Positions 7,790-60,620 of a DNA stretch of 64,000 nucleotides are shown here, piece by piece (the stretch's first letter is position 1; every line of letters starts with the position of its first letter). The translations under genes and the position numbers were made by a program. Source of the stretch: Burkholderiales bacterium (lineage in GTDB: Bacteria > Pseudomonadota > Gammaproteobacteria > Burkholderiales > Usitatibacteraceae); the NCBI GenBank assembly GCA_038227085.1, contig JBBRQA010000001.1:1090-65089 (forward strand). Direction: 5' to 3'. Below the pieces are notes generated by a model. The model saw only the letters and a program-made list of their open reading frames with translations, did not search any database and was not told where the DNA came from.

Positions 7790-8089
7790 ATGTCCACCCG
7801 CAACAAGCTCATGCAGTCGGCTATCGCGAGCGTGCTCGCGATAGGTACGGTCCACGCGGCCGATGCCCAGGACACCAAGGGCGGCGCGAAGGAAAAGTGC
7901 TACGGAGTCGCCAAGGCGGGCCAGAACGATTGCGGCACCGCGCGCCACTCGTGCGCGGGCAAGGCCGCGCGCGACAACTTGCCGGAGGAATGGAAGTACG
8001 TGCCCAAGGGCACGTGCGAGAGCGTGGGCGGCAAGACCACCACGGGCGCCGCGGACACGTCCAAGGCTCCCAGGTTCATGGCGTACTAG
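7790..8089 (+). CDS. bufA: DUF2282 / BufA1-type bufferin RiPP precursor peptide
   Basis: Sec signal (…AIGTVHA|ADAQ) followed by [23 protein letters not shown]...[10 protein letters not shown] with 4 Cys. AGGAGG SD upstream. Confidence 0.85.
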
Positions 8090-8093
8090 CACG

Positions 8094-8942
8094 GTGCACC
8101 CTCCCGGGCTCGCGCCCGGCAGCGCCGGCATCGGGCTGCGCGCGCCGCACTACGCAGAGATCCTCGAGCGCCGTCCCGCGCTCGCTTTCCTAGAGGTCCA
8201 CAGCGAGAACTTCTTCGCCGCAGGCGGGGCCCCGCTCGACTGGCTCGAGCGCTTCCGCGCCTCCTATGCGCTCAGCCTTCACGGCGTGGGCCTGTCGCTG
8301 GGCTCGGCCGATCCGCTCGACCAGCGCCACCTCGCGAAGCTCGAGGCGTTGGTCGACCGCTTCGAGCCCGCGCTCGTCTCCGAGCACCTGTGCTGGTCGT
8401 CGATCGGCTCGCGCCACGCCAACGATCTCCTGCCGCTCCCGTACACCGAAGAGGCGCTCGACCACGTGGTCGAGCGCATCGAGCGCGTGCAGCAGCGCCT
8501 CGCGCGGCGGATCCTGGTGGAGAACGTGTCTTCCTATGTGCAGCTCGCGCACTCGACCATTCTCGAGTGGGACTTCGTCTGCGAGGTGGCGCGCCGCTCC
8601 GGGTGCGGCGTGCTGCTCGACGTGAACAACGTCTGGGTGAACTCGGTAAACCACGGCTTCGACGCGCGCCGCTACCTCGCCGCGATCGAGCCGTCGCTGG
8701 TGGGCGAAATCCATCTCGCCGGTTTCGAGCGCTCCGGCGAGCTGCTCATCGACACGCATGGCGCGCGCGTCGCCGCCGAAGTGTGGGGGCTCTACGCCGC
8801 CGCGCTGGCGCGCATCGGGCCGCGGCCCACGCTCATCGAGTGGGACACCGACATCCCGGCGCTCGACGTGTTGCTCGACGAGGCGCGCATCGCGCGCGCC
8901 CACCTCGCGGCGGCCGCGCCGGCGCGCGTGGAGATGGCGTGA
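8094..8942 (+). CDS. bufB: DUF692 / multinuclear non-heme iron oxidase (MNIO) family protein
   Basis: GIGLRAPHY...FLEVHSENF...LHGVGLSLGS...SEHLCW...LVENVSSY...EIHLAGF...LIDTHG...LIEWD. GTG start 5 nt after the bufA stop. Confidence 0.9.
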   Translation: MHPPGLAPGSAGIGLRAPHYAEILERRPALAFLEVHSENFFAAGGAPLDWLERFRASYALSLHGVGLSLGSADPLDQRHLAKLEALVDRFEPALVSEHLCWSSIGSRHANDLLPLPYTEEALDHVVERIERVQQRLARRILVENVSSYVQLAHSTILEWDFVCEVARRSGCGVLLDVNNVWVNSVNHGFDARRYLAAIEPSLVGEIHLAGFERSGELLIDTHGARVAAEVWGLYAAALARIGPRPTLIEWDTDIPALDVLLDEARIARAHLAAAAPARVEMA

Positions 8943-10468: not shown

Positions 10469-11320
10469 TCAGCCCTTCGCCGGGTTGCCCACGTCCATCA
10501 CGATGCGCCACTGCCCGGCCTGCATGCGCCAGACGCGCAGGAAATAGCCGAGCGGCTTGCCGGGCTCCGAGAGCGACGCGTAGCTGCCGCGCGCGTAGCC
10601 GAAGTCGCGCGAGCGCGAGATCTCGGTGCGATCGATCACCCACGCATGCCTGGTCTCGGCCATCGCGGGCGAGGCGAGCGACGCGGCCTTGCCCACCGCC
10701 GGCGCGAAGCCGCTGCGGTAGAAGCGCATGCGCTCGGCGCCATGCTTCGCGTAGGCCGCGTGCGGCCCTTGGGCGTGCGCGTCGGAGACGAAGTCGAGCT
10801 CGGCGCCCTCGATGCCGCGCGCCGCGGGCCCGGCGCTTGCCGAGGGCGCGGAGGTGTCGAGCGGCGCATCCCAGAGCGCATTGCCGGAATGTTCGATACC
10901 CAGGTCCACCGCGACCTTCCAGGGGCCGGCGGCTTCGCGTCGCCACACCGACACGTACTGGCCGAACGCGGGTGGCGTCGCGGGCTTGTCCTTGCTGGTC
11001 ACTTTCCACGGGCCCGTGGACAGCCCCAATTCCCCGGAGGCGGCGACCTCGGCGTGCACCGGGCGCCAGTCGAGCACGATGGGCGGCGCCGGCTGGTTCC
11101 TGAGGAAATCATTGCTGACGGCCCAGCCGTTCCCCACGAACACCCCGTCGTCGGCGAAGTTGGCGAGGAACGCGGCGCGCATGTCCTCGCGCACCGAGAG
11201 GGCCGCGAAGGCGCTTTCCGCCGCGGCGAGCGAGGCGGCGTCGTCCATGGAGGCGGGAGGAGTGGGTTGCTGCGCGCAGCCCGTGACGGCGATCACGGCG
11301 ATCAGGAGGGCCTTTCGCAT
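10469..11320 (-). CDS. lipoprotein with tandem SnoaL/DUF4440-like (NTF2 fold) domains
   Basis: Lipobox AVTGC. Two repeats end in ...GQYVSVWRREAAGPWKVAVD and ...GYFLRVWRMQAGQWRIVMD. Confidence 0.65.
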   Translation of the reverse strand: MRKALLIAVIAVTGCAQQPTPPASMDDAASLAAAESAFAALSVREDMRAAFLANFADDGVFVGNGWAVSNDFLRNQPAPPIVLDWRPVHAEVAASGELGLSTGPWKVTSKDKPATPPAFGQYVSVWRREAAGPWKVAVDLGIEHSGNALWDAPLDTSAPSASAGPAARGIEGAELDFVSDAHAQGPHAAYAKHGAERMRFYRSGFAPAVGKAASLASPAMAETRHAWVIDRTEISRSRDFGYARGSYASLSEPGKPLGYFLRVWRMQAGQWRIVMDVGNPAKG

Positions 11321-11355
11321 GGGCTCATTCTAGGACCCGGCGCAAGGCCCGTTCG

Positions 11356-12714
11356 TTACAAAACGTACCGGGCCAGGTCTTCGCTCGCGGCGAGGTCGGC
11401 GAGGCGCCCGTCCACGTAGGCGGCGTCGATGGTCACGCGCCCGCTCGTGCGCCCGGCGTCGAAGGAGACTTCCTCGAGGAGCTTCTCCATGACGGTGTGG
11501 AGCCGGCGCGCGCCGATGTTCTCGGTGCGCTCGTTCACGGAGAAGGCGATTTCCGCCAGCCGGCGCACGCCCTCGGGGGTGTACACCAGCTCGACGCCCT
11601 CGGTGGCGAGGAGCGCCTGGTACTGGCGCGTGAGGCAGGCGTCGGTGGCGGTGAGGATGCGCTCGAAGTCTTCCACCGAGAGATTGGAGAGCTCGACGCG
11701 GATCGGCAGGCGCCCCTGCAGCTCGGGAATGAGGTCCGACGGCTTCGACAAATGAAATGCGCCGCTCGCGATGAAGAGGATGTGGTCGGTGCGGATCATT
11801 CCGTACTTGGTGGTCACCGCGGTGCCCTCGATCAGCGGCAGCAGGTCGCGCTGCACGCCCTGGCGCGAGACATCGGCGCCCTGCATCTCGCCGCGGCTCG
11901 CGATCTTGTCGATCTCGTCGATGAACACGATGCCGTCCTGCTCGACCGAGGTGAGCGCCTTGAAGCGGATCTCCTCCTCGTTCACGAGCTTGAACGCCTC
12001 CTCGTCGGTGACCAGCCGTAGCGCTTCCCTGATGCGCAAGGTGCGGCGCGTCCTGCGCGCGCCGCCCATGTTGGCGAACATGCCCTGGATCTGGCTGGTG
12101 AGCTCCTCCATGCCGGGAGGGGCGAGGATCTCCATGTTGCCCTGACCCTGCGCCACGTCGATCTCGATCTCCTTGTCGTCGAGCTTGCCCTCGCGCAGCA
12201 TCTTGCGGAAGCGCTGGCGGGTGGAGTTGGCATCGTGGTCGCTGGCCGCGGGCACGCCCGGCAGCAGCGCGTCGAGCACGCGGTCTTCCCCCGCGTCCTC
12301 GGCGCGGGGGCGCACCTTGCCCATCTCGCGCTCGCGCGTCGTCTTGATCGCGATCTCCACCAGGTCGCGCACGATGGAATCCACGTCGCGCCCCACGTAG
12401 CCCACCTCGGTGAACTTGGTCGCCTCGACCTTGATGAAGGGTGCCCCGGCGAGACGCGCAAGGCGCCGCGCGATCTCGGTCTTGCCCACGCCCGTGGGCC
12501 CGATCATGAGGATGTTCTTCGGCGTGATCTCGGTGCGCAGCGGTTCCGCTACCTGCGAGCGGCGCCAGCGGTTGCGCAGCGCGATCGCCACCGCGCGCTT
12601 GGCCTCGCCCTGGCCGACGATATGCTTGTCGAGCTCGTGCACGATCTCCTGCGGCGTCATCATCGACGCCCCCTCGGCGGGCGCGCTGCTCGGCATGGGC
12701 GTGACGTCGGCCAT
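11356..12714 (-). CDS. hslU: ATP-dependent protease ATPase subunit HslU
   Basis: [16 protein letters not shown], Walker [16 protein letters not shown] and DEIDKI. Start chosen at MADV, just downstream of the hslV stop. Confidence 0.95.
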
Positions 12715-12716
12715 CG

Positions 12717-13262
12717 TCACAGGGACTCGATCACGTGATTCTGGTTGGTGTAGATGCACAGCTCGCCCGCTATGGCGAGCGACTTCTTCACCACTTCCGC
12801 GGGCTCGAGCGCGGAATTCTCGAGGAGAGCCATCGCCGCGGCCTGCGCATAGCCCCCGCCGCTGCCGATCGCGAGCAGGCCATGCTCGGGCTCGAGCACG
12901 TCGCCGGTGCCGGTGATGATGAGGGACACCTCCTTGTCGGCGATCGCCAGCATCGCCTCCAGGCGGCGCAGCATCCGGTCGGTGCGCCAGTCCTTTGCGA
13001 GCTCCACCGCGGAGCGCAGCAGGTTGCCCTGGTGCTTCTCGAGCTTCGCCTCGAAGCGCTCGAAGAGGGTGAAGGCGTCGGCGGTGGCGCCGGCGAAACC
13101 GGCGAGGATGCGGTCGTGGTAGATGCGCCGCACCTTGCGCGCGGTAGCCTTCACGACGATGTTGCCGAGCGTGACCTGGCCGTCGCCGCCCATGGCGACG
13201 CGTTCGCCGCGGCGCACCGACAGGATGGTGGTGCCGTGGAATTGCGCGGGTTCGGAGCTCAT
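12717..13262 (-). CDS. hslV: ATP-dependent protease subunit HslV
   Basis: [10 protein letters not shown]...GGDGQVT with the N-terminal Thr nucleophile context. Full length, 181 aa. Confidence 0.97.
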
Positions 13263-13328: not shown

Positions 13329-14468
13329 TCAGGTGGACTTGCGGCGCACCAGGATCGCGTAACGATTGACACCCATCGCCTCGAGAAGTGCCGCGTTGAG
13401 CTCATTGAGATTCGCGAGGATCACGCGCTTGCCGGCCAGCTGGATCGCCTTCACCACGTCAAAGAACGCCGCGGTGTAGCCGAACTCCACGCGCAGCACC
13501 TTGGCCATGTCGACCACCACCTCGGTGCGCGTCGCCGCCACCGCGTTCAGCTCCGCGATCTGGTTGGCGCTGGACGGCGAGATCACGCCCTTCAGCTCGT
13601 AGCCTACTTCCGGCGGCATAGGTGCCGCGGCAGCGGTCTTGGCGGCGGAGGTCGCCTTGGCCGCGTCAGACGCGACCTTGTTCACGTAGACCTCCCAGTT
13701 GGGCGGCGACATCTCGAAGGCAACGGCGAATTCCAGGCCGAGCTCCTCGAACTCGTCCATCTTGCCGAGCAGGATGTAGATCTCGAAGAGGAGCAGCCAG
13801 TACGGGCGCTGCTCGGTCGACGGGCTCTCGTTGAAGGCGGCGCGCAGCACCTGCACCAGCCCCTCGAAGTTGTTGAACCACATGGACGTCTTCTTCTTGC
13901 GAAGTCGGCCCAGTGCGTTTGCGAGCAGCAATGCCTCGTCGTGGGAGATCGCCGTGACCTTCGCCACGTCGAGGCGCACCGTGCCCTGGCTCTCGGCCAC
14001 CGCGAGGAACTTCTCGATCTCCCCGGCGAGCTCGCCGCTGGGCGTGGCCTTCAGCGTGAAGAAATCCTTGCGGTCGCGGCTTTGGTTGCGGCGCGGGTCG
14101 TTGGCCGCGTCCCCGCCATCGGTCCACACCGGCGGCGACTGCTCGAACTTGACCGTGAAGAGCATCGACAGGGAGTCGAACTCCTGGCGGTCCTGCGCGA
14201 CCTGGTAGAGGTCGAACAACATCAGCCATGCCTGCTTGTTGTTGCGCCCGACCGCGTCCTTGATTTCCCAGCGCAGCAGAGCCGCGGCGGCCTCGACGTG
14301 GTTGGCGGAGTAGAGGATGGCGGCTTCCTGCGCGGTGGGCAGGACGCCGGAGTTGTATTCCTCGGAGCCGAGGCGGCCCGCGGGCCGCGCCGGGCGGATG
14401 GGGCTGGGGGAGTTGGCGCCGACCGCGGAAGTTGCCACCGTGGCCTTAGTGCGAAACCGCGTTGGCAT
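13329..14468 (-). CDS. tandem (helical module + STAS domain) x2 protein
   Basis: Internal duplication (…WLMLFDLYQV…FEQSPPVW / …WLLLFEIYIL…FEMSPPNW), each copy followed by a STAS-like segment. An alternative GTG start at 14438 would avoid the overlap with the upstream gene. Confidence 0.65.
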   Translation of the reverse strand: MPTRFRTKATVATSAVGANSPSPIRPARPAGRLGSEEYNSGVLPTAQEAAILYSANHVEAAAALLRWEIKDAVGRNNKQAWLMLFDLYQVAQDRQEFDSLSMLFTVKFEQSPPVWTDGGDAANDPRRNQSRDRKDFFTLKATPSGELAGEIEKFLAVAESQGTVRLDVAKVTAISHDEALLLANALGRLRKKKTSMWFNNFEGLVQVLRAAFNESPSTEQRPYWLLLFEIYILLGKMDEFEELGLEFAVAFEMSPPNWEVYVNKVASDAAKATSAAKTAAAAPMPPEVGYELKGVISPSSANQIAELNAVAATRTEVVVDMAKVLRVEFGYTAAFFDVVKAIQLAGKRVILANLNELNAALLEAMGVNRYAILVRRKST

Positions 14469-14972: not shown

Positions 14973-16154
14973 TCATCGCTTCAGGAGGATCGCCGGATCG
15001 CGGCGGTACGCCTGGAAGGCCGGGATGAGGCAGGTGGCGGCGCCGGCGGCGAGCACCGCGAGCGCGATCCAGCCTTCCGCCGGTTGCCACGCGAAGCCGG
15101 TAATGCTCCAGGCGTTCGTGCGGGCGATCCAGCTTCCCAGGACCCCTGCGGCCACATGCCCGAGGACCAGACCCAGTATAACTCCCGTCCCCACGAGCGT
15201 CACGCCTTCCGCGGCCACCAGCGCGAAGAGCGCCGCAGGCCGGGCGCCCAGCGCGCGCAGCAGCGCGAGGTCATAGCGGCGCTCCTGCAGCGCCGCCATG
15301 AGCGCGGCGAACATCGAGATCGCGGCGGTCGCCATCAGCACCAGCGCGAAGATCCGCAACACGTCGACGCCGACGCCGACGAGGTTCATGAGGCGCGCCA
15401 TCTCGAAGGCGGGCGCGGCCGCCTGCATCGACGTGGTCGCGTTCACCTGGCGCGGCATGAGCGCCGCGGCAAGCGGCGTGCGGTATTTCACCAGGAGCGC
15501 CGTGATTTCGCGATCGTCGTTGCCCGCGGCTTGCGGCTCGCTATGCCCGGCGTGCACTTGCCAGACGCTTTCGAGCGGCGTGACCACGAGCCGGTCGATC
15601 ACCGCCCCCGTGGGCGCGAGGACGCCGACCACGCGATAGGCGTGGCCTTCGTGCGCGGTGCCGGCGTTGCCGAGCCCGTGCGAGCCGACCAGCTCGGCTC
15701 CGGTGCCGAGCGAAAAACGGCGCGCGACCTCGGCGCCGATGACCGCTTCCATGGGCGCTTCGAACACGCGGCCCTGCGCGACGCGCGCGCCGTAGAGCGC
15801 GAGGTAGCTCGCGTCGGTGCCGACGATGCGATGGCCGCGAAAGGTGTCCCCGATGGAGATCGGCGTGGCGGAGGCGACCATCGGATTGGCGGCGACCTTG
15901 CGCGCCTCGGCGAGCGGGATGTTGCCCGTGGGTACGTCGACCTGCAGAACCGAGGAGAGGATCAGTTGCAGGGGGCTGCCCTTGGCGCCGACGACGAGAT
16001 CCACCGGGCTCGCGTCCCGCGCGAGGCGCTCCTCGGCCTGCGTGGTGAAGAGGAGGAGGAGCACCACCGTGCCCACGCCGATCGCGAGGAGGAGCACGTT
16101 GAGCGCGGTAGCGAGCGGGCGCGCCGCGAGATAGGCCCATGCGAGGCGCAGCAT
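14973..16154 (-). CDS. ABC transporter permease, FtsX/MacB-like
   Basis: N-terminal TM helix, a large periplasmic domain and a C-terminal FtsX-type 3-TM bundle (…LRALGARPAALF…). Confidence 0.85.
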   Translation of the reverse strand: MLRLAWAYLAARPLATALNVLLLAIGVGTVVLLLLFTTQAEERLARDASPVDLVVGAKGSPLQLILSSVLQVDVPTGNIPLAEARKVAANPMVASATPISIGDTFRGHRIVGTDASYLALYGARVAQGRVFEAPMEAVIGAEVARRFSLGTGAELVGSHGLGNAGTAHEGHAYRVVGVLAPTGAVIDRLVVTPLESVWQVHAGHSEPQAAGNDDREITALLVKYRTPLAAALMPRQVNATTSMQAAAPAFEMARLMNLVGVGVDVLRIFALVLMATAAISMFAALMAALQERRYDLALLRALGARPAALFALVAAEGVTLVGTGVILGLVLGHVAAGVLGSWIARTNAWSITGFAWQPAEGWIALAVLAAGAATCLIPAFQAYRRDPAILLKR

Positions 16155-16156
16155 GC

Positions 16157-16783
16157 TCACAGCTCGAGCCTCCTCGGGAAGCGATCGCGGATGCGTTGGT
16201 CGTGCGTTGCGATGACCAGCGTCGCGCCGCACGCCGCGGCCTGGCCGGTGAGGAGCGCGAGCGCCTTTTCGCAATTGGCGTCGTCGAGCGCGGAGGTGGG
16301 TTCGTCGGCGAGGATCAGGCGTGGCCGGTTGACCACCGCGCGCGCGATCGCCACGCGCTGCGCTTCGCCCACGGAAAGGTCGCGGGCCTTGCTCCGCGCG
16401 AGCGAGGCGATGCCCAGGCTCGCGACGCACGCGTCGATCGCGCCGTCGTCACGCGCCAGCCCCGCGAGGCGCTGCGCGATGCGCAAGTTGTCGCGCACGC
16501 TCACCACGCCGATGAGATGCAGCGTCTGCGGCACGAGCCCGATGTGGCGCGCGCGAAAGGCGTCGCGATCGAGCGCGCCGAGCGCCGAGATCTCCTGACC
16601 CCCCACGCTGACGGCGCCGCCGCTCGCGGACACGAGGCCGGCGATGATGCCGATCAGCGTGCTCTTGCCGCTGCCCGACGGGCCGATGACGAGGCTCGCC
16701 TCCCCCTTCGGCACGCTCCACTCCTCGACCTGCAGGACGGTTCGCCCGGCATATTCGTGACGTAGCCCACGGATTTCCAACAC
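16157..16783 (-). CDS. ABC transporter ATP-binding protein
   Basis: Walker A GPSGSGKST, signature LSVGEAQRVAIARA, Walker B LILADEPTSALD. GTG (16783) or TTG (16780) start. Confidence 0.9.
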   Translation of the reverse strand: MLEIRGLRHEYAGRTVLQVEEWSVPKGEASLVIGPSGSGKSTLIGIIAGLVSASGGAVSVGGQEISALGALDRDAFRARHIGLVPQTLHLIGVVSVRDNLRIAQRLAGLARDDGAIDACVASLGIASLARSKARDLSVGEAQRVAIARAVVNRPRLILADEPTSALDDANCEKALALLTGQAAACGATLVIATHDQRIRDRFPRRLEL

Positions 16784-16806: not shown

Positions 16807-17802
16807 CTAAGCGACGCAGTAAGTCAGGCCTTCCTCGAAGAGCCGGCGCGGGAGCTTGCGGCCGATGAACACCATCACGCTCTCGCGCTTCTCGCCCGCT
16901 TCCCATGGCTTGCCGGGCGTACCGCCCATCAGCATGTGCACGCCCTGGAAGATCATGCGGCGCGGCTCGCCCTGGACGTTGAGGACTCCCTTGTAGCGCA
17001 GCAGCTCCTCGCCGTAGTTCTGCACCATGAGCGAGAGGAAGGTCTCGATCTTCTCCATGTTGAGCGGGCGCACGTCCTTCCACACGAACGACTTCACGTC
17101 GTCGTCGTGCACGTGGTCATCGCTCTCGAGGAAAGCGGGATCGACCTCCAGCACGGCATTGAGGTTGAACCCGCGGATGTCGAGGATCTCCTTGATGTCG
17201 GCTTCGCCCATGTGCACCTTGCTCTGGTGCGCGCGCGGGTTCATCTGGCGCAGGCGCTTCACCAGCTCTTCGACCTTGTCGTCTTCCACGAGGTCGGTCT
17301 TGGAGAGGAGGATGCGGTCGGCGAAGCCCACCTGGCGGCGCGCCTCGTCGTGGTCGTCGAGCGTCTTCTGCGCATGCTTTGCGTCCACCACGGTCACCAC
17401 GGCGTCGAGCAGGTACTGGTCGTGGATCGACTCGTCCATGAAGAACGTCTGCGCGACCGGGCCGGGATTGGCGAGCCCGGTGGTCTCGATGATGACGCGG
17501 TCGAACTTGAGCTTGCCCTCCCTCCTCTTCTTGCCCAGGTCGCCGAGGATGCGCACCAGGTCGCCGCGCACCGTGCAGCAGACGCACCCGTTGTTCATCT
17601 CGACGATCTGCTCCTGCTTGTCCTTCACCAGGATGTCGTTGTCGATGCCGGTCTCGCCGAACTCGTTCTCGATCACCGCGATCTTCTCGCCGTGCTGCTC
17701 GGTGAGGATGCGGTTCAGGAGGGTCGTCTTCCCCGCGCCCAGGAAGCCGGTGAGGATGGTGACGGGGATCAAGTCTTTGTCGGCGGGTGCGGCGGAAGCC
17801 AT
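16807..17802 (-). CDS. COG0523 (CobW/YjiA/ZigA-like) metallochaperone GTPase
   Basis: P-loop GFLGAGKTTLLN, CxCC motif GCVCCTV and an acidic/His linker ESDDHVHDDDV before the C-terminal domain. Confidence 0.9.
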   Translation of the reverse strand: MASAAPADKDLIPVTILTGFLGAGKTTLLNRILTEQHGEKIAVIENEFGETGIDNDILVKDKQEQIVEMNNGCVCCTVRGDLVRILGDLGKKRREGKLKFDRVIIETTGLANPGPVAQTFFMDESIHDQYLLDAVVTVVDAKHAQKTLDDHDEARRQVGFADRILLSKTDLVEDDKVEELVKRLRQMNPRAHQSKVHMGEADIKEILDIRGFNLNAVLEVDPAFLESDDHVHDDDVKSFVWKDVRPLNMEKIETFLSLMVQNYGEELLRYKGVLNVQGEPRRMIFQGVHMLMGGTPGKPWEAGEKRESVMVFIGRKLPRRLFEEGLTYCVA

Positions 17803-17806
17803 GGGT

Positions 17807-18823
17807 CTACCTCGGGATTGTCGCGGGATTGCTGGTGAAGGATTCCAGTATGCGGGCGACCGCCGCTTCTTCAAGGCCGCGCCCGATGAAAACGATGCGG
17901 GTCGACCGGTCGGCGTCGGGCCAGGCGGCGAGCCGAGCCGGAGGATACAACGCGTGCTGGACCGCGTGCACCGCCCTGGGGCCGGGCTCGCCGGCCACGT
18001 TCACCAGGCCCTTCACGCGCAGCACGCGGTCACCCAGGAGGTCCAGGAGCGTCTCCAACCCCCTTTCGAGGTCCTCCCACCCGAGCGGCTCCTCCGCGCG
18101 CCAGACGAAGCTGGAAATGGCGGGGTCGTGCGGAGGGTGCGGATCGCCCACGCGCCGGTACGCGCCCGCGGAAAGCCAGCCTGCCGCGTCCGCGATCCCG
18201 CCGGGGCGGAAGAGGCCCGCGTCGAAGAGGAGGGCGGGATCGATGTCGCCCAGCACCGCGCGGTGGATGCGGGCCCCCGGATTGAGGGCGGCGAGGCGCG
18301 CCTCGAGCGCGTCGACGCTGCTCGCGCGGTCGCTCTTGGTGATCACGATCCGGTCGGCGAGGGCGGCCTGTTTCACGGCCTCGGGCTGCGCGTCGAGCGT
18401 CGCCATGCCGTGCTCGGCGTCCACCGTGGTGACCACGCCCGCGAGGGAATAGCGGGCCGCGAGCAACGGCAGCTCGATAAGGGACGCGAGGATCGGCGTG
18501 GGATCGGCAAGGCCGGTGGTCTCGATGACGACGCGCTTGAAGTCGCCGACCGCGCCGGTAGAGCGCTGCAGATGCAATTCGCGCAACGCACGGATGAGAT
18601 CTCCCGACGCGCGGCAGCAGATGCATCCGCCGGGCAGGACCACGATGTCCTCCGTGGCGTTCCTCACCCGGAGATGGTCGATCGCGACGTCGCCGAACTC
18701 GTTCACGATCACCGCCGTGTCCGCGAAGCGCGGGTCGGCGAGCATGCGGTTCAGGAGCGTGGTCTTGCCGCTGCCGAGAAAGCCGGTGAGCACCGTGACC
18801 GGCGTGATGATGCTCGAGGCCAC
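17807..18823 (-). CDS. COG0523 family GTPase, second paralog
   Basis: GFLGSGKTTLLN and GCICCRA. It lacks the His/Asp-rich linker. GTG start 4 nt after the xerC stop. Confidence 0.85.
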   Translation of the reverse strand: MASSIITPVTVLTGFLGSGKTTLLNRMLADPRFADTAVIVNEFGDVAIDHLRVRNATEDIVVLPGGCICCRASGDLIRALRELHLQRSTGAVGDFKRVVIETTGLADPTPILASLIELPLLAARYSLAGVVTTVDAEHGMATLDAQPEAVKQAALADRIVITKSDRASSVDALEARLAALNPGARIHRAVLGDIDPALLFDAGLFRPGGIADAAGWLSAGAYRRVGDPHPPHDPAISSFVWRAEEPLGWEDLERGLETLLDLLGDRVLRVKGLVNVAGEPGPRAVHAVQHALYPPARLAAWPDADRSTRIVFIGRGLEEAAVARILESFTSNPATIPR

Positions 18824-18827
18824 GCTT

Positions 18828-19733
18828 TCAGGCCTTCTTCGCGGGCGCCTTGGCACGGCGTGCGCGCGGATGCGCCGCGTCGTACACCTTGGAGAGGTGC
18901 TGGAAATCGAGGTGGGTATAGACCTGCGTCGACGTGATGCTCGCATGGCCGAGCATCTCCTGCACCGCGCGCAGGTCGCCGGAGGATTGCAGCACGTGGG
19001 AGGCGAACGAGTGGCGCAGCATGTGCGGGTGCACGTCGACCTCGATCCCGGCGGCCGCGGCCCAGCGTTTGATGCGTCGCTGCACTTCGCGCGGGGCGAG
19101 GCGCCGCCCGGATCTGCCGAGGAAGAGCGCGTTCTCGCCGGGCTTGGCGAGCGCGGCGCGAACCGGCAGCCACGCCGCGATCGCCGTGAGCGCGTGCGCC
19201 CCCACCGGAACGATGCGCGTCTTGGATCCCTTGCCGGTCACGCGCACTTCGCCCGTCGCGGTGTCGATCGCGTTGAGGTCGATGCCGGTCAGCTCCGAGA
19301 CGCGCAGGCCGCAAGAGTAGGCGAGCTCGAACAGCGCGCGATCGCAATGCGCGAACGCGGAGTCGCCCAGCGTCACGAGCTGAACCGCTTCGTCCGGCGA
19401 CAGCGTGCGCGGCAGGGTGCGCGCTGCCTTCGGCCCCTTGACGCCGGAGCAGGGATTGGCCGCGATCTCGCGCTGGCGTTGCATCCATTCGAACAATCCG
19501 CGCCAGCTGGAAAGGATGCGCGCGAGCGAGCGCGGCGACTGGCCCTTCGAATGGAGCTGGGCGACGAAGCGGCGGATGTCGTGGCTGTCGAGCGCCTCTA
19601 GGGGGCGCTCGCCGCTCAATCCGAGGAGGAGCCGCCCGTCGCGCCCATAGGCGGCGAGGGTATTGGAGGCGAGCCGACGCCCGGTACGCAGACTGGAGAG
19701 GTAGCGCTCGAGGGCGCTAGGCGGCGTCGCCAC
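18828..19733 (-). CDS. xerC: tyrosine recombinase XerC
   Basis: Catalytic motifs ...GLRVSEL..., HMLRHSFASH and GHASITSTQVYTH. The dapF-DUF484-xerC synteny is present. Confidence 0.93.
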   Translation of the reverse strand: MATPPSALERYLSSLRTGRRLASNTLAAYGRDGRLLLGLSGERPLEALDSHDIRRFVAQLHSKGQSPRSLARILSSWRGLFEWMQRQREIAANPCSGVKGPKAARTLPRTLSPDEAVQLVTLGDSAFAHCDRALFELAYSCGLRVSELTGIDLNAIDTATGEVRVTGKGSKTRIVPVGAHALTAIAAWLPVRAALAKPGENALFLGRSGRRLAPREVQRRIKRWAAAAGIEVDVHPHMLRHSFASHVLQSSGDLRAVQEMLGHASITSTQVYTHLDFQHLSKVYDAAHPRARRAKAPAKKA

Positions 19734-21262: not shown

Positions 21263-21435
21263 CGGCAGATTCTACCGATGCGCCCCGCTATGTAGGGAAG
21301 CGCACATCAGGCTCGGCGAAATGAGACAATCGCCCTTCCCCTGTAGTCCGATTCTTCGTCCCCGGCCGCGCCTTACCGCTGCGCTCCATTCACCGCAAGT
21401 CGCGCTCGAAATCGAGCGCCCGAAGGGATTCTCCG

Positions 21436-22290
21436 ATGACAGCCCAGGAAAAAGGCGGCCTCGCCGCCATCGTCCGCAACAACGAAGCCGACATCCTCGC
21501 CGAGTGGATTCGCGAGCAGAGCGCCGGCCAGAAGCGCAAGGACCCGATTCAGGAGGTCGAGGCACGGCGCGTTTCCAAGGAATTCCTCTCCGCGAGCGTG
21601 GAGGCGATGAATAGCGGCGCCTCCGTCGAGGGGCGCGAATGGGACCGGGTGCGCGAGATCCTGAGCGAGCTGTCGGCCTCGCGCGCCGCGCAGGGCTTTT
21701 CGCCGAGTGAGACCGCCAAGTTCGTGTTTTCGCTCAAGCAGCCGGTGTTCTCGCGGCTGCGCAACGAGCTCGAGAGCAGTCCGAAGGCCTTCGCCGAACA
21801 GACCTGGCTCGCGACGGTGATGATCGACCAGCTCGGGCTCTTCACCATGGAGGCCTACCAGAAGAGCCGCGAGGGCGTGATCCAGCGCCAGCAGCGCGAG
21901 CTCCTCGAGCTTTCCACTCCGGTGGTGCAGCTGTGGGACGACATCCTCGCGCTTCCCCTCATCGGTACGCTTGACAGCGGCCGCACCCAGGTGGTGATGG
22001 AAAGCCTCCTCGAGAAGATCGTCGAGACCGGCGCCTCGATAGCGATCATCGACATCACGGGGGTGCCGACCGTCGACACCCTGGTGGCGCAGCACTTGAT
22101 GAAGACCGTGGCGGCGGCGCGCCTCATGGGCGCCGACTGCATCATCAGCGGCATCCGCCCGCAGATCGCGCAGACCATCGTGCACTTGGGCGTGGATCTA
22201 TCCGCGGTCACCACCAAGGCGAGCCTCGGCGACGCCTTCGCGATCGCGTTGAAGCGCACCGGGCTCAAAGTCACGCGCGAGGGCGAGTGA
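21436..22290 (+). CDS. rsbR: RsbR-like stressosome sensor (N-terminal RsbR_N/globin-like domain + STAS)
   Basis: STAS region LPLIGTLDSGRTQ...IDITGVPTVDTLVAQHL matches the RsbR phospho-Thr contexts. Confidence 0.85.
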   Translation: MTAQEKGGLAAIVRNNEADILAEWIREQSAGQKRKDPIQEVEARRVSKEFLSASVEAMNSGASVEGREWDRVREILSELSASRAAQGFSPSETAKFVFSLKQPVFSRLRNELESSPKAFAEQTWLATVMIDQLGLFTMEAYQKSREGVIQRQQRELLELSTPVVQLWDDILALPLIGTLDSGRTQVVMESLLEKIVETGASIAIIDITGVPTVDTLVAQHLMKTVAAARLMGADCIISGIRPQIAQTIVHLGVDLSAVTTKASLGDAFAIALKRTGLKVTREGE

Positions 22291-22291
22291 C

Positions 22292-22645
22292 GTGGAGCGA
22301 ATCCCGATCCTGCGCATGGGCCCGTTCCTCCTGGTGACGATCCAGGTCGACATGCACGACCAGCTCGCCCTCACCCTCCAGGACGACCTCACCCAGCGCA
22401 TCGTGCGCGAGAAGGCGCGCGGAGTCCTCATGGACATCTCGGCGCTCGACGTCGTCGACTCCTTCATCGGCCGCATGATCAGCAACATCGCCGCTATGTC
22501 GCGGGTGCTCGACGCGCGCACCGTCGTGGTCGGCATGCAGCCCGCGGTCGCGATCACGCTGGTCGAGCTCGGCCTCGACCTGAAGGGTGTCAGCACCGCG
22601 CTCAACGTCGAAAAGGGGATGACGCTGCTGCAGGCGGCCGCCTGA
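22292..22645 (+). CDS. rsbS: RsbS-like stressosome scaffold (single STAS domain)
   Basis: IPILRMGPFLLVTIQ...DISALDVVDSFIGR (conserved Ser context)...GMQPAVAITLVELG. GTG start. Confidence 0.9.
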   Translation: MERIPILRMGPFLLVTIQVDMHDQLALTLQDDLTQRIVREKARGVLMDISALDVVDSFIGRMISNIAAMSRVLDARTVVVGMQPAVAITLVELGLDLKGVSTALNVEKGMTLLQAAA

Positions 22646-22731
22646 ATTCCACGAGGAGCTCGGGCTCGCCCGTCAATCGCGATGTCGCGCTCGAAGGAAC
22701 CGAGACCCTCCTCCTGAAGGACGGCGAGGAC

Positions 22732-23094
22732 GTGGTGCGCCTGCGCAAGAAGGTGCGCGAGCGCGCCGTGGCGCTGGGCTTCACGCTCGTCGAGCAGACC
22801 AAGATCATCACCGCGGCGAGCGAGCTTGGCCGCAACACCATCCAGTACGGCGGCGGCGGGCAGGCGCGCATCTCGGCGGCAACCAACGGCACGCGCCGCG
22901 GCCTCTTCCTCGAATTCGCCGACCAGGGCCCCGGCATCGCCGACCTCGAGCTCGCCCTCACCGACGGCTACACCACCGGCGGCGGCCTCGGGCTGGGCCT
23001 CAGCGGCGCGCGGCGGCTCTCCGACGAGTTCGACGTCGAGTCGCAGCCCGGCCAGGGCACGCGCGTCACTATCGTGCGCTGGAAGCCTTTCTGA
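22732..23094 (+). CDS. rsbT: RsbT-like serine kinase (HATPase_c_2); the true N-terminus is probably upstream (candidate CTG at 22642)
   Basis: ITAASELGRNTIQYGGGG...DQGPGI...GLGLGLSGARRL. The frame stays open upstream and encodes RsbT-like N-terminal residues, but has no ATG/GTG/TTG. Confidence 0.8.
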   Translation: MVRLRKKVRERAVALGFTLVEQTKIITAASELGRNTIQYGGGGQARISAATNGTRRGLFLEFADQGPGIADLELALTDGYTTGGGLGLGLSGARRLSDEFDVESQPGQGTRVTIVRWKPF

Positions 23095-23153
23095 GCGCCG
23101 ACCGCAACGTTTGCATCGAGCTCGCCGACGGCAGCCACGTCTCGGCCGCGCGC

Positions 23154-24104
23154 ATGGGCGTGCAGGCCCTCGCGCGCGACCTGGGCTTCGACGAGACCCG
23201 ATCCGGCCGCGCGGCGATCGCTGTGACCGAGGTCGCGACCAATCTCTTGCGCCATGGGGGCGGCGGCTCGCTCTTCGCCCGCGCGCTCGCGCGCGGGCAA
23301 TCCCTCGGCATCGAGGTGCTCGCGCTGGACAAGGGGCCGGGGATGGAGAATTTCGCGTGGAGCTCGTTAGACGGGGTTTCCACCGGGGGCACGCAGGGGA
23401 CGGGGCTGGGCGCGATCCAGCGCCAGTCCGACGAGTTCGACGTCTATACCGGGCGCGACCAGGGAACGGTGATGCGCCTGGTCTTCTGGGACCGGGACAC
23501 CGGCCCCGATACCGGATCTTACGAAGTGGGCGCGGTGTGCGTGCCGATGCCGGGAGAGACTCTCAGCGGCGACGCCTGGGGCGAGGAGTTCCACGACGAG
23601 GGCGCCACCTTCCTCGTCTCCGACGGACTCGGGCACGGGCCGGACGCATGCCGCGCCTCCGCGATGGCGGTGTCCGCGCTCAAGAGCCGCCCGCTCGATT
23701 CGGCGATCCGCATCCTGGACCTCGCGCATGGGCGCCTGCGGGCCACGCGCGGCGCCGCCGTCGCGGTGATGCGCCACGAGGCTGCAACGGGCGAGGTCGC
23801 GTTCGCCGGGGTCGGCAACATCGCGTCGTGCCTCTGGGAGGGCGCTGGGATTCCGCGCAGGATGATGGTCTCCCACAACGGCATCGTCGGGCACAACGTG
23901 CATCGCTCGCAGGAGTATCGTTATCCGTGGGAGTCGGGCGCGCTGTTGATCGCCCATTCGGACGGCCTGGAGTCGCGCTGGGACGTGGGATCCTATCCGG
24001 GCCTCGCCGCGTGCCACCCGTCGATCATCGCGGCGATGCTGTACCGCGAGCACTCACGCAAGCGCGACGACGTCGTAGTGCTCGTGGTACGCAAGAGGAA
24101 CTGA
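23154..24104 (+). CDS. RsbT-like HATPase_c_2 domain fused to a PP2C/SpoIIE phosphatase (RsbX-like); the N-terminus is probably upstream (candidate CTG at 23091)
   Basis: N-terminal half: AVTEVATNLLRHGGGG...DKGPGM...GTGLGAI. C-terminal half: GDAWG...LVSDGLGHG...LIAHSDGL. Confidence 0.8.
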   Translation: MGVQALARDLGFDETRSGRAAIAVTEVATNLLRHGGGGSLFARALARGQSLGIEVLALDKGPGMENFAWSSLDGVSTGGTQGTGLGAIQRQSDEFDVYTGRDQGTVMRLVFWDRDTGPDTGSYEVGAVCVPMPGETLSGDAWGEEFHDEGATFLVSDGLGHGPDACRASAMAVSALKSRPLDSAIRILDLAHGRLRATRGAAVAVMRHEAATGEVAFAGVGNIASCLWEGAGIPRRMMVSHNGIVGHNVHRSQEYRYPWESGALLIAHSDGLESRWDVGSYPGLAACHPSIIAAMLYREHSRKRDDVVVLVVRKRN

Positions 24105-24105
24105 C

Positions 24106-26244
24106 GTGGCCATCCGCCTGCTCACCTATGCGCTGAACGTCCAGTCCGACGTGGTGGGCGCTCGCCAGCGCGCGCGCGACGTGGCCGCGCTCCTCGGTTT
24201 CTCCGAGCGCGATCAGACGCGCATCTCGACATCGGTCTCGGAAATCGCGCGCAACGCCTTTCGCTACGCGGGCGGCGGCAAGGTGGAGTTCGAGCTCGAG
24301 GGCGACACTTCGCCGCAGCTGCTCATCGTTCACGTGTCTGACGAGGGCCCGGGAATCGCCAACCTCGAGCAGATCCTCGACGGCAACTATCGCTCGACCA
24401 CCGGGATGGGCATCGGGCTCATCGGCTCGCGCCGGCTGATGGACCGCTGGGAGATCCATTCGTCGGGGCAGGGGACGAAGGTGACGCTTGGCAAGATGCT
24501 GCCAGACGAGTCGCCGCTGATCACGCCGCTCACCGCCGGCAAGCTCCTGTCGAAGCTGGCGAACCTTCCGCACGGCAGCTCGCTTGCCGAGGTGCAGACG
24601 CAGAATGCCGAACTCCTCGCCGCGCTCGCCGAGCTGCAGGACAAGCAGGACAAGCTCCTCGAGCTGGCGCGTGAGCTCGAGGACACCAATCGCGGCGTGG
24701 TCGCTCTCTACGCCGAGCTGGACGAGAAAGCGGTTCACCTGCGCCGCGCCGACGAGATGAAGTCGCGCTTCCTCTCCAACATGAGCCACGAGTTCCGCAC
24801 GCCCTTGAATTCGATGCGTGCGTTGTGCGGCCTCCTCCTGTCGCACGCCGACGGGCCGCTGCACCCGGAGCAGGAGACGCAGGTCAAATTCGTCGCCAAG
24901 GCCGCGGAGGACCTGACCGAGCTGGTGAACGATCTTCTCGACCTGGCCAAGATCGAGGCCGGCAAGATCGAGGTGCGTCCCGTGCAATTCGAGATCGCGG
25001 AGCTGTTCAGCGCGCTGCGCGGCATGCTGCGCCCGCTCCTCGTCGCCGACACGGTCGAGCTCGAATTCGAGGTACCGGTCGGAGTGCCCACGCTTTTCAC
25101 CGACGAGAGCAAGGTATCGCAGATCCTGCGCAACTTCGTCTCCAACGCGCTCAAGTTCACCGAGCGCGGCTCGGTGGAGGTGGCCGCGCGCCTCGACGAG
25201 GACGGCGAGTCGGTAGTCTTCTCGGTGCGCGACTCGGGCATCGGCATCGCGCTCGAGGACATGGAGCTGGTATTCGAGGAGTTCGCGCAGATCCCCAATC
25301 CGTTGCAGCGGCGCGTGAAGGGCACCGGCCTCGGGCTTCCGCTGTGCCGCAAGCTCGCCACGATCCTCGGCGGCGACGTCTCCCTCGAGAGCACCCCGGG
25401 GCAGGGCTCGACCTTCTTCGCGCGGATCCCGGTGCGCTTTCGCGTGGAGGGAGCCGAGCCGTCGCGGGTCGACGCCGGGAGCGAAAGCCGGCGCGCGATC
25501 GACATGGCGGGGCGCTGGGTCCTGGTGATCGAGGACGATCCCGCGGCGCGTATGGTCTACGAGAAGTTCCTCAAGAGCACCGGTTTCGCGGTGATCGCGG
25601 TCGCTTCGTTGGGTGAAGCGCGCGAGATGCTCAAGCTCGCGCGCCCGAGCGCGGTGATCCTCGACATCCTGCTGCCGGGCGAGGAACAACATACCTGGCG
25701 CTGGCTCTCCGAGATGAAATCGCGCGACGACGCGCTGCCGGTGATCGTGGTGAGCAACGCCGAGGACGAGCGCAAGGCCTACTCGCTGGGCGCGGATGCG
25801 TACTTCGCGAAGCCGATCGCGCGCGATTCGCTCATTTCTGCCCTCGAGCGGGTCGCCGCGCGTGCCGGCGAGCGCCTCGCGCTCATCATCGACGACGACG
25901 AGGCCGCGCGCTACGTGATCCGCCGCTCGGTGCGCGCGCCGATGCGCTTCGAGGAGGCGCGCGACGGCGCGAGCGGCCTGGCCCTGGCGAGCCGTTGCCA
26001 GCCTGGCGTGATCTTCCTCGACCTGTCGATGCCCGGCATGCGCGGCGATGAAGTTCTCGAGCATTTGCGCGACGACCCCGCGACTTCCCATATCCCGGTG
26101 ATCGTGGTCACCTCCCACGAGATCGACCCCGCGCTGCGCGCGCGGCTGGAGAGCCACGCTCGCGCCATCCTGCACAAGAAGGACCTGTCGGTGGAGTCGC
26201 TGGCCGGCGCCCTCGAGATCGTGGACCGGCCGCGCGCGGCATGA
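24106..26244 (+). CDS. hybrid histidine kinase: RsbT-like HATPase_c_2 + coiled coil + HisKA/HATPase_c + two receiver domains
   Basis: SEIARNAFRYAGGG...DEGPGI; H-box SNMSHEFRTPLNS; G-boxes DSGIGI and GTGLGL; receiver Asp contexts VILDILLPG and IFLDLSMPG. Confidence 0.9.
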   Translation: MAIRLLTYALNVQSDVVGARQRARDVAALLGFSERDQTRISTSVSEIARNAFRYAGGGKVEFELEGDTSPQLLIVHVSDEGPGIANLEQILDGNYRSTTGMGIGLIGSRRLMDRWEIHSSGQGTKVTLGKMLPDESPLITPLTAGKLLSKLANLPHGSSLAEVQTQNAELLAALAELQDKQDKLLELARELEDTNRGVVALYAELDEKAVHLRRADEMKSRFLSNMSHEFRTPLNSMRALCGLLLSHADGPLHPEQETQVKFVAKAAEDLTELVNDLLDLAKIEAGKIEVRPVQFEIAELFSALRGMLRPLLVADTVELEFEVPVGVPTLFTDESKVSQILRNFVSNALKFTERGSVEVAARLDEDGESVVFSVRDSGIGIALEDMELVFEEFAQIPNPLQRRVKGTGLGLPLCRKLATILGGDVSLESTPGQGSTFFARIPVRFRVEGAEPSRVDAGSESRRAIDMAGRWVLVIEDDPAARMVYEKFLKSTGFAVIAVASLGEAREMLKLARPSAVILDILLPGEEQHTWRWLSEMKSRDDALPVIVVSNAEDERKAYSLGADAYFAKPIARDSLISALERVAARAGERLALIIDDDEAARYVIRRSVRAPMRFEEARDGASGLALASRCQPGVIFLDLSMPGMRGDEVLEHLRDDPATSHIPVIVVTSHEIDPALRARLESHARAILHKKDLSVESLAGALEIVDRPRAA

Positions 26245-27770
26245 TGGACACGGGCGCCGACGTGATCCTCAACGTCGACGACAACGACGCCGCGCGCTAT
26301 GTGAAGACGCGCGTGCTGCGCATGGCGGGCTTCGAGGTGCTAGAGGCCGCCAACGGGGCCGACGCGGTGGTCATGCTTCGGACTCGCAACCCCGAGCTGG
26401 TCCTCCTCGACGTGCGCCTGCCCGACATGGATGGACGCGAGCTCGCCGCCGCCATCAAGGCCGATCCGTCGCTCGCCCGCATCGTGGTGCTGCAGACTTC
26501 GGCCTCGCACATCGAGTCGAAGCATCGCATCGCCGCGCTCGACGCCGGCGCCGACGGCTACCTGGTCGAGCCCATCGAGCCCGAGGAGCTGTTGGCCAAC
26601 GTGCGCGCGCTGCTGCGCATGCGCCGCGCGGAGCGCGAGCGCCAGGCGGCGCTGGAGGCGCTTCAGGAAGCCGACCGCCGCAAGGACGAGTTCCTCGCCA
26701 TGCTCGCGCACGAGCTGCGCAATCCCCTGGCACCGATCCGCAACGCCGTGGAAATCCTGCGCCTGTCGGCCGATCGCCCGGTGCGCGAGCGCGCGCGGGA
26801 GCTGATCGGCAGGCAAGTGGTCCATCTCGCGCGCCTGGTCGACGACCTTCTCGACGTCTCGCGCATCACGCAGCGCAAGATCGTGCTGCAGCGAGCGGCC
26901 GTGAACCTGTCCGCCGTCCTCGATTCGGCGATCGAGCTCGCTGCGCCGCTCATCGCCGAGCGCGGCCAGCAATTCAAGCTGGCGCGCCCCGACGCCGACA
27001 TCTGGCTGAACGCCGACGGCGTGCGGCTCTCGCAGGTGGTCGGCAACCTCCTCCACAACGCGTCGAAATTCACCCCGCGCGGGGGGGCCGTGACGCTCGA
27101 TGTCGCCCGCGCCGGGGGCATGCTGCGCATCGCCGTCTCCGATACCGGCGAAGGTATCTCCCCGCAATTCCTTCCCGCGGTCTTCGAGCTCTTCTCGCAA
27201 GGCGACCGTTCGCTCGAGCGCGCCGGCGGCGGGCTCGGCATCGGGCTGTCGCTCGTGAAAGGACTCGTGGAGCTCCACGGCGGCACGGTGACCGCGCAAA
27301 GTGGCGGCGCGGGCGAAGGCAGCCGCTTCGTGATCGAGCTGCCGCTCGCGGGTCTCGAGATCGCGGAGCCGGCGACGCCGATCCAGCCCGAAGCCCTGCT
27401 GAAAGCCGCGCGACGCGTTCTCGTGGTGGAGGACAACATGGACGCGGCCGAGGCGATGGCGATCCTGCTGCGCGAGCTCGGCCACGAAGTCGTGGCGGTG
27501 AACGACGGGCGCGAGGCGGTGGACGCGGCGCGCGCCTTCCGCCCCGACATCATCCTGCTCGACATCGGCCTGCCGGGCATCGACGGCTTCGAGCTCGCGC
27601 GGCGCTTCCGCGAGCTTCCCGAGACGCGCGCCATCAAGGTGATCGCCGTGACCGGCTACGGGCAGGCCGCCGACCGCGCGCGCTCCAAGGCTTCCGGATT
27701 CGACCTGCACCTGGTGAAGCCGGTCGATCCCGACAAGCTCGCGCGCGCGCTTCTCGAGGCCGAGGCCTAG
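26241..27770 (+). CDS. hybrid histidine kinase: REC + HisKA/HATPase_c + REC
   Basis: LVLLDVRLPDMDG; H-box AMLAHELRNPLAP; DTGEGI and GGLGIGL; C-terminal IILLDIGLPGIDG. ATGA overlap with the upstream kinase. Confidence 0.9.
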   Translation: MMDTGADVILNVDDNDAARYVKTRVLRMAGFEVLEAANGADAVVMLRTRNPELVLLDVRLPDMDGRELAAAIKADPSLARIVVLQTSASHIESKHRIAALDAGADGYLVEPIEPEELLANVRALLRMRRAERERQAALEALQEADRRKDEFLAMLAHELRNPLAPIRNAVEILRLSADRPVRERARELIGRQVVHLARLVDDLLDVSRITQRKIVLQRAAVNLSAVLDSAIELAAPLIAERGQQFKLARPDADIWLNADGVRLSQVVGNLLHNASKFTPRGGAVTLDVARAGGMLRIAVSDTGEGISPQFLPAVFELFSQGDRSLERAGGGLGIGLSLVKGLVELHGGTVTAQSGGAGEGSRFVIELPLAGLEIAEPATPIQPEALLKAARRVLVVEDNMDAAEAMAILLRELGHEVVAVNDGREAVDAARAFRPDIILLDIGLPGIDGFELARRFRELPETRAIKVIAVTGYGQAADRARSKASGFDLHLVKPVDPDKLARALLEAEA

Positions 27771-60561: not shown

Positions 60562-60620
60562 CGCGGGCTCCTGATTGCCGTTGCGGCTCAAATTTTAGTA
60601 TACGCCGGGGGAGCGCGCGG

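Follow-up and report, generated by a model that had tools for sequence, protein, structure and literature searches.

Bacteria without sigma B and RsbU pose the question of how a stressosome passes on its signal, and in the best-studied Gram-negative case a route from RsbT to a kinase could not be shown (PMC9237108). The question is raised again by a 64,000-nucleotide stretch of Burkholderiales DNA (contig JBBRQA010000001.1), here called the window, which carries a tight operon of six genes on the + strand (21436-27770) in the order RsbR, RsbS, RsbT, P4, P5, P6. The first three encode the stressosome core. P4 is an RsbT-like GHKL module (T') fused to a PP2C phosphatase, P5 is a further such module (T'') joined through a long helix to a hybrid histidine kinase, and P6 is a hybrid kinase led by a receiver (REC). 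The operon is proposed to be a conserved stressosome cassette in which RsbT paralogues, joined in cis to the partner enzymes, take the place of the usual contact between free RsbT and an RsbU_N domain, a proposal whose chances of being right are judged about even. The architecture of the cassette suggests an answer to the question, namely that the enzymes encoded downstream bring an RsbT copy of their own. A sequence-only reading of the same DNA had described this layout. All six open reading frames are present on the + strand where that reading had placed them, and Pfam assigns every domain it named in RsbR, RsbS, RsbT and the three proteins that follow. Neither Pfam nor NCBIfam detects an RsbU_N domain in the six proteins (E<=0.01).

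The proposal rests first on the kinship of the three GHKL modules. T'' is 39.5% identical to the RsbT of the operon over 119 residues (E 6e-29) and T' is 35.5% identical to it over 110 residues (E 2e-20), with 32% identity between T' and T'' (E 1e-10). Against the true kinase ATPase domains of the operon the modules reach E-values of only about 1e-5. All three score 62-97 bits to B. subtilis RsbT and no more than 42 to RsbW and SpoIIAB, values that are approximate, as are these reference sequences. By sequence the modules are paralogues, nearer to RsbT than to RsbW, SpoIIAB or the catalytic and ATP-binding (CA) domains of their own kinases. The possibility that T'' is a duplicated CA domain was rejected, as it matches RsbT far better than its own CA domain (27%, E 7e-6). 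That T' and T'' are RsbW/SpoIIAB-type anti-sigma kinases is disfavoured by the same approximate bit scores and by their short ATP lid.

An alignment of the window with orthologues from seven other loci resolves T, T' and T'' into three orthologous groups that run across phyla, with identities of 0.43-0.59 within groups and 0.25-0.37 between them. Common to all three are an RsbT-type short ATP lid, the N-box Asn, DxGPG, Y(G/A)GGG and the G2 box. In T' homologues the ATP-binding motifs are almost invariant (N-box 118/119, G1 119/119). The RsbT-like nature claimed for the three modules is therefore borne out by Pfam, by their paralogy within the window and by the orthologue alignment. Each module also retains an Arg that aligns with SpoIIAB R20, a residue in contact with the STAS domain. 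The RsbT-STAS contact residues that a conservation test in T' and T'' would use are not given in two cryo-EM papers on the complex (PMC9237128, PMC12154155), and a sequence search of the PDB retrieved no RsbT chain.

P4 (23091..24104, +) consists of T' (nucleotides 23160-23483) and an RsbX/MtX-type PP2C domain (23523-24092). Numbered from the ATG at 23154, Pfam assigns HATPase_c_2 to residues 3-110 (1.7e-8) and SpoIIE/PP2C to residues 150-313 (1.1e-9). The linker between the two domains is short, ~13 residues, with T' ending at residue 110 and PP2C beginning at residue 124. The best PDB sequence matches of the phosphatase are MtX of Moorella thermoacetica (3zt9, E 1.8e-18) and then RsbX (3w40, 3.5e-6). 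The AlphaFold model (pLDDT 88.7, pTM 0.90) gives the same order by Foldseek, with a TM-score of 0.90 to 3zt9 (rmsd 2.4 A) and 0.82 to 3w40, while the N-terminal half superimposes on SpoIIAB (0.73); 3ke6 is also among the fold matches. All metal-binding motifs of the PP2C domain are kept (GDAW, DGLGHG, SDG, DD). The phosphatase is a minimal PP2C fold (~190 residues) closest to RsbX and MtX, and its gene follows rsbT directly, as in RSTX, both in the window and at every related locus. It departs from the RsbX type in that it is not a single-domain protein but has the RsbT-like module fused to its N-terminus. As the pTM is 0.90, T' and PP2C can be treated as one rigid body, and T' is predicted to pack rigidly against the phosphatase.

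Since P4 is of the RsbX/MtX type by both sequence and fold, and lies in the 'X' position after rsbT, its PP2C domain is most likely a tethered reset phosphatase of the stressosome and not a parallel output branch. An RsbU-like output phosphatase was considered and rejected, as the best matches are MtX and RsbX and P4 has neither RsbU_N nor a helical regulatory linker. This bears on the earlier suggestion that partner-switching input is delivered in parallel to a phosphatase and a kinase. The RsbT-like modules behind that suggestion stand and the phosphatase as an output branch probably does not, while parallel docking survives as one of two live models.

P5 (24106..26244, +) is a T''-helix-HisKA-HATPase-REC-REC hybrid kinase. 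T'' occupies nucleotides 24106-24498, the helix 24580-24840, the phospho-accepting His228 24787-24789, the CA domain 25102-25434, and the two receivers 25519-25845 (D520) and 25873-26226 (D639). Pfam finds HATPase_c_2 at residues 15-129 (3e-18), HisKA at 218-286, HATPase_c at 333-443 and two Response_reg stretches. In the AlphaFold model (mean pLDDT 85.5) T'' is well folded over residues 1-131. The earlier reading had placed a coiled coil after the RsbT-like module of this 712-residue kinase, and the model contains a single continuous helix of 87 residues (159-245) that runs from the T'' side straight into the DHp helix bearing His228. A second DHp helix, the CA domain and the two receivers follow. 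The best Foldseek match is full-length ShkA (6qrj; DHp-CA-REC1-REC2), and GacS and HK853 are also matched.

Just before the DHp domain this helix carries the 18-residue motif ELEDTNRGVVALYAELDE (24673-24726, +; E190-E207), which is invariant in 59 P5 homologues. P5 belongs to a family of T''-helix proteins that forms at least 416 clusters at 50% identity (E<=1e-30). All ten members sampled carry HisKA (10/10), and two have an inserted GAF domain.

The arrangement is not peculiar to the window. The loci compared came from Usitatibacter/Burkholderiales, Steroidobacteraceae, an alphaproteobacterial metagenome-assembled genome (MAG), Bryobacteraceae (Acidobacteria), four Oerskovia genomes (Actinobacteria), the MAG L010 and the Logan contig L014. 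Every locus with enough flanking sequence has the order R, S, T, T'-PP2C, (T'')-helix-kinase, receiver-led gene. It recurs in unrelated genomic contexts among Acidobacteria, Actinobacteria and the Alpha-, Beta- and Gammaproteobacteria. The flanking genes vary, being dapF/lpxL in the window, cytochrome oxidase assembly genes in Steroidobacteraceae and glnA in Oerskovia. As the order stays constant while the flanks differ, the cassette travels as a unit. It is widespread in soil bacteria of several phyla. In one Steroidobacteraceae MAG (L013, 379-15072) the cassette lies between genes for COX1-3, CtaG, SURF1 and COX15-CtaA and a UbiA-family gene. A link between cassette and respiration drawn from this single case is speculative.

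The sixth gene varies between lineages. After its first receiver it continues as HisKA-HATPase-REC in the window, as PAS-HisKA-HATPase-REC in several Proteobacteria, as HisKA-HATPase only in Bryobacteraceae, and as PP2C in Oerskovia, where the whole is REC-PP2C, a recognisable type of partner-switch output. In the window it encodes P6 (26241..27770, +), with REC1 at 26262-26615 (D57), His157 at 26709-26711, the CA domain at 27015-27350 and REC2 at 27417-27752 (D441). Pfam assigns REC, HisKA (148-211), HATPase_c (259-370) and REC, and the best PDB sequence match is again ShkA (6qrj, 4.6e-35). P5 and P6 each have the H-box His, the CA domain and receivers with a phospho-acceptor Asp that are expected of HisKA hybrid kinases, and the count of two His and four Asp sites in the earlier reading is correct (H228, D520 and D639 in P5; H157, D57 and D441 in P6).

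The first receiver of P6 is atypical. Aligned to an approximate CheY reference, it has E110 where the canonical Lys (CheY K109) would stand. Throughout the 11 orthologues the residue here is E, A, G, H or T, with the equivalents of D12, D13, D57 and S87 kept. Judged by these residues, the sixth gene begins with a receiver of a distinct subtype that goes with the cassette.

The absence of a visible output from the operon was also confirmed, with no DNA-binding, GGDEF, HPt or sigma domain found in the six proteins by Pfam or NCBIfam. The same searches found no HPt and no response regulator among 45 other predicted proteins of the window, and a phmmer search of the 64 kb with the four operon receivers gave no further ORF of this kind. 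The idea that the window holds a partner receiver or an HPt outside the operon was therefore rejected. Among the 45 proteins are products of housekeeping genes, one STAS_2, one GAF and one cyclic-nucleotide-binding protein. Since there is no HPt, Asp-to-Asp steps are chemically impossible within the operon and only His-to-Asp steps can take place. The multi-step His-Asp relay proposed from sequence is not upheld, and 'two hybrid kinases in series' is the safer label. Loss of an adjacent output regulator from this one locus, which the earlier reading had named as a possible refutation, was rejected as well. In the five lineages checked no DNA-binding, GGDEF or HPt regulator stands next to the cassette. 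In one Oerskovia genome (L008) an Asp23-family gene (15892-16410, -) and an ECF-type sigma factor gene (17719-18330, +) lie within 3.6 kb downstream of the cassette. The sixth gene of this cassette is REC-PP2C, and the neighbours may hint that Actinobacteria use a sigma factor as output.

A stressosome forms a pseudo-icosahedral complex of ~1.8 MDa that sequesters RsbT, and the first three genes supply its usual parts. RsbR (21436..22290, +) combines a variable N-terminal sensor, here a non-haem RsbRD_N domain (21460-21762; Pfam 2.8e-25), with a C-terminal STAS domain (21925-22236; 1.7e-13). Both conserved phosphorylation sites hold Ser or Thr, S181 (21976-21978) in GTLDSGR and T215 (22078-22080) in PTVDTLVA. 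They correspond in position to T171 and T205 of B. subtilis RsbR. RsbS (22292..22645, +) is a lone STAS domain of 117 residues (Pfam 3.1e-8) with Ser57 (22460-22462) in the DSF motif, VVDSFIGR. RsbT (22732..23094, +; 120 residues from GTG 22732) is a stand-alone GHKL serine kinase directly after rsbS (HATPase_c 2.6e-13, HATPase_c_2 1.5e-7), with N35 in the N-box, the G1 box DQGPG (residues 64-68) and the G2 box GLGLGL (85-90). It is 43.6% identical to B. subtilis RsbT (97 bits, approximate, as is the reference sequence).

From the observed gene order, domain architecture, GHKL paralogy, catalytic motifs and conservation across phyla, a mechanism can be proposed on the basis of sequences and models. 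RsbR and RsbS would form the STAS scaffold. The stand-alone RsbT would act as the writer, phosphorylating Ser57 of RsbS and S181 and T215 of RsbR. The RsbX-type phosphatase of P4 would be the eraser, which T', rigidly joined to it, directs to the same STAS surface. P5 would be the reader, with T'' binding or leaving the STAS lattice according to lattice phosphorylation or the stress state. This event would be passed down the 87-residue helix with ELEDTNRGVVALYAELDE to His228 of the DHp domain. Phosphorylated P5 may then pass its phosphate to Asp57 in the atypical receiver at the P6 N-terminus, the sole downstream element kept in every lineage. That receiver would control a lineage-specific effector, a second HisKA kinase with a receiver in the window and a PP2C in Oerskovia. 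The C-terminal receivers of P5 may be sinks or auto-inhibitors. The final output, whether an HPt, a response regulator or some protein to which a phosphorylated receiver binds, would be encoded elsewhere in the genome. In its strongest form the STAS lattice would be a shared docking platform for three GHKL paralogues, namely a free kinase, a tethered phosphatase and a histidine kinase set by hold and release, with the ELEDTNRGVVALYAELDE helix as transmitter. This form is judged less likely than not.

Several points weigh against the proposed mechanism. The contacts of T' and T'' with STAS domains are deduced from sequence and models, and the assignment of the modules leans in part on the approximate reference sequences. 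T'' docking cannot be the universal coupling step, since T'' is degenerate in Oerskovia and missing from L010, and both keep the linker motif. In Vibrio vulnificus an interaction between RsbT and D1, a different stressosome-linked kinase, was not detectable (PMC9237108), and by analogy genomic linkage may not guarantee simple binding. The canonical starts, if real, leave both RsbT and P4 without the first beta-strand of their fold. Finally, the Lys-less first receiver of P6 may not act as a normal phospho-switch.

The alternative that survives best works in trans. RsbT released from the stressosome would bind P5 at the linker motif, pair with T'', or both, and thereby order the helix and switch the kinase. 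This main rival is considered unlikely, and the linker motif is among the evidence for it. The motif reads ELE(D/E)TN(R/Q)GV(V/L)ALYAELD across lineages and is present in every lineage examined. In Oerskovia, where T'' has lost the N-box Asn and the G1 box, it is duplicated, and it is present in the L010 kinase, which has no T''. In that locus (11267-12145) the fifth gene consists of the linker motif and HisKA-HATPase only, 293 codons from stop to stop, with no RsbT-like module and no receiver. This gene of a proteobacterial MAG may be either a minimal variant that occurs in nature or an artefact of assembly. A binding site for RsbT on a helix also has a precedent, as RsbT activates RsbU by contacting and rigidifying a coiled-coil linker, and histidine kinases have been proposed to work on the same principle (PMC12143880). 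Moreover, since there is no RsbU_N, the stand-alone RsbT is otherwise without an obvious target in the operon. In this model T'' would be a partner or decoy domain that does not dock to the stressosome, with T' likewise receiving RsbT instead of the STAS lattice. A passive decoy is hard to fit with the proteobacterial T'' homologues, in which the three ATP-binding motifs are kept in 113/113, 113/113 and 112/113 sequences, and which argue for an active role of T''. There is also no RsbU_N-like four-helix domain to hold RsbT. As to a pairing of RsbT with T'', we know of no documented heterodimer of RsbT-type kinases.

In a further alternative T' and T'' would be primarily active Ser/Thr kinases with substrates of their own, and the three paralogues would write the three sites RsbS S57, RsbR S181 and RsbR T215 instead of competing for docking, an idea rated as distinctly improbable. 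In it P4 would be a bifunctional kinase/phosphatase of SypE type that sets the phosphorylation of RsbS or RsbR, and P5 would combine Ser/Thr with His kinase activity. All three modules do conserve the N, G1 and G2 boxes, and three phosphorylatable STAS sites exist. SypE, with an N-terminal RsbW-like kinase and a C-terminal PP2C that act on the STAS protein SypA, provides a precedent (PMC3610818). However, a kinase fused to a phosphatase for the same residue would run a futile cycle unless regulated, and P4 has no receiver or other switch. Judging from its motifs, the Oerskovia T'' cannot bind ATP. This alternative overlaps in part with the proposed cis-fused cassette and does not exclude it.

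That stressosome genes and two hybrid kinases are neighbours without a common function is barely credible, even if the V. vulnificus case shows how hard a stressosome-kinase link is to demonstrate (PMC9237108). Five distant lineages whose flanks differ keep the order R-S-T-T'X-T''HK-REC, the genes lie 1 nucleotide apart or overlap, and paralogues of the stressosome kinase are built into the proteins encoded downstream.

The linkage of stressosomes to two-component genes goes back in the literature to a 2005 survey, as cited in later work (PMC9237108, PMC10014275), so that the Gram-negative linkage named in the sequence-only reading is documented. Histidine kinases with RsbU_N occur in the stressosome operons of some Proteobacteria (PMC9237108, PMC12143880), and RSTX, with an X phosphatase after rsbT, is the arrangement of non-Bacillus stressosome loci (PMC9237108). 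No description of RsbT paralogues on kinases or on RsbX-type phosphatases was found in the curated family libraries or in the open literature searched, outside which the 2005 survey and a 2017 review lie.

The cassette shares with the stressosome of B. subtilis and Listeria an RsbRD_N-type RsbR, a STAS-only RsbS with the DSF serine and RsbT, all in the same order, and a minimal PP2C of RsbX type. It differs in lacking RsbU, RsbV, RsbW, sigma B and RsbU_N, and in that its phosphatase and its histidine-kinase output each carry an RsbT paralogue. The RSTX locus of V. vulnificus with VvD1 and VvD2 (PMC9237108, PMC10014275) likewise has a phosphatase in the X position followed by a hybrid kinase, no RsbU_N and an unexplained kinase link. 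There, however, a haem globin-coupled sensor takes the part of RsbR, the RsbX described is a PP2C of one domain, D1 contains PAS domains and D2 is a predicted c-di-GMP phosphodiesterase output. In the window these places are taken by an RsbRD_N sensor, a fused X gene, a kinase with an RsbT-like N-terminus and no output domain. Moorella thermoacetica (MtR-MtS-MtT-MtX-MtG) resembles the cassette in having a stressosome with a non-sigma output, and among solved structures MtX (3zt9; Quin et al. 2012) comes nearest to the P4 phosphatase. Unlike P4, MtX is single-domain, and the output MtG is a GGDEF cyclase whose RsbU_N receives MtT, as cited in PMC4976288 and PMC12143880. In the RsbU_N histidine kinases, too, the coupling of stressosome and kinase runs through a module at the N-terminus and a linker that is helical. 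They carry the receptor for RsbT, whereas P5 carries a copy of RsbT itself.

Outside stressosomes, SypE of Vibrio fischeri (PMC3610818) and Rv1364c of M. tuberculosis (3ke6) resemble P4 in joining an RsbW/RsbT-class kinase domain and a PP2C in one polypeptide, and both act on a STAS protein. SypE has a central receiver, and in Rv1364c the order is turned round (PAS-PP2C-kinase-STAS). P4 lacks a receiver and so is not a protein of SypE type; it also lacks a STAS domain, and its PP2C belongs to the RsbX type. In RsbK-RsbY of Bacillus cereus (PMC4574943) a hybrid kinase is followed by a receiver-led effector, and the Oerskovia REC-PP2C cassettes end exactly like RsbY. However, RsbK senses through CHASE3/GAF with no stressosome, and the effector in the window is a kinase and not a PP2C, so that the likeness holds in the Oerskovia loci only. 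Caulobacter ShkA (6qrj), the top structural match of P5 and top sequence match of P6, has the order DHp-CA-REC1-REC2 and its HPt encoded elsewhere, but is switched by c-di-GMP.

If the docking platform proves true, a megadalton STAS complex would regulate a histidine kinase in a new way and connect partner switching directly with His-Asp signalling. The cassette is a compact system for studying how the two are joined, and the output, the Lys-less receiver and the invariant linker motif offer entry points.

The starts of two genes bear on the models above. The first canonical start of P4, ATG 23154, gives 316 residues, while CTG 23091, which overlaps the rsbT stop, gives 337. Of 119 P4 homologues 110 are longer than 316 residues, most of them 326-343, and two related loci (L002 and L004) have TTG where the window has this CTG. 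In the P4 model beta1 (residues 7-11) and alpha1 (15-30) span the ATG, so that the 21 extra residues make up the first strand and half of helix 1, which would otherwise be cut. On these grounds of homologue length, relatives and predicted fold, the true start is probably CTG 23091, giving 337 residues. RsbT likewise appears about 15-20 residues short at its N-terminus, with 120 residues against 135-141 in homologues elsewhere. No canonical start codon lies upstream of GTG 22732, and the upstream codons (span 22646-22731) show a weak coding signal in close relatives. An out-of-frame ATG at 22682 was considered as a sign of a frameshifted rsbT start and rejected, as it is not conserved in relatives.

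The genes are closely packed, with gaps of 1 nucleotide between rsbR and rsbS and between P4 and P5, and the ATGA overlap of P5 and P6 described earlier is real. The operon is flanked by housekeeping genes on the other strand, dapF/DUF484/xerC upstream (divergent) and a lipid A acyltransferase gene downstream (convergent). Its promoter region is presumed, from position only, to be the intergenic stretch between the divergent dapF and rsbR (21263..21435, +). No sigma-70 consensus match was found in this stretch, and promoter and terminator scans gave nothing above chance. In NCBIfam no specific model fits any of the six proteins, all matches being far below the curated cut-offs, and the database names of the cassette proteins are generic ('ATP-binding protein'). 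The window has a G+C content of ~68%, and its nearest relatives are Usitatibacter/Burkholderiales MAGs.

Some other genes of the window are recorded here. About 7 kb from the operon, upstream of hslV/hslU (12717-13262, 11356-12759), a gene at 13329-14468 (-) encodes a protein of 379 residues that is internally duplicated and carries STAS_2 (1.6e-8) at its C-terminus. It has no NCBIfam match, and the usual phospho-serine is not evident. The sole other signalling-type genes seen in the window are an adjacent pair (59845-61229, -) for small GAF-domain (59845-60591) and cyclic-nucleotide-binding (60621-61229) proteins. An ORF of 636 residues at 17027-18937 (+) has no Pfam or NCBIfam match and an atypical codon-position G+C (0.64/0.58/0.79), and may not be a real gene. 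Apart from it, nothing is assigned between 16.4 and 18.8 kb. The gene at 7863-8942 (+) belongs to the MbnB/TglH/ChrH family of enzymes that modify precursors of ribosomally synthesised and post-translationally modified peptides (2.4e-108), which hints at a small peptide-modification locus.

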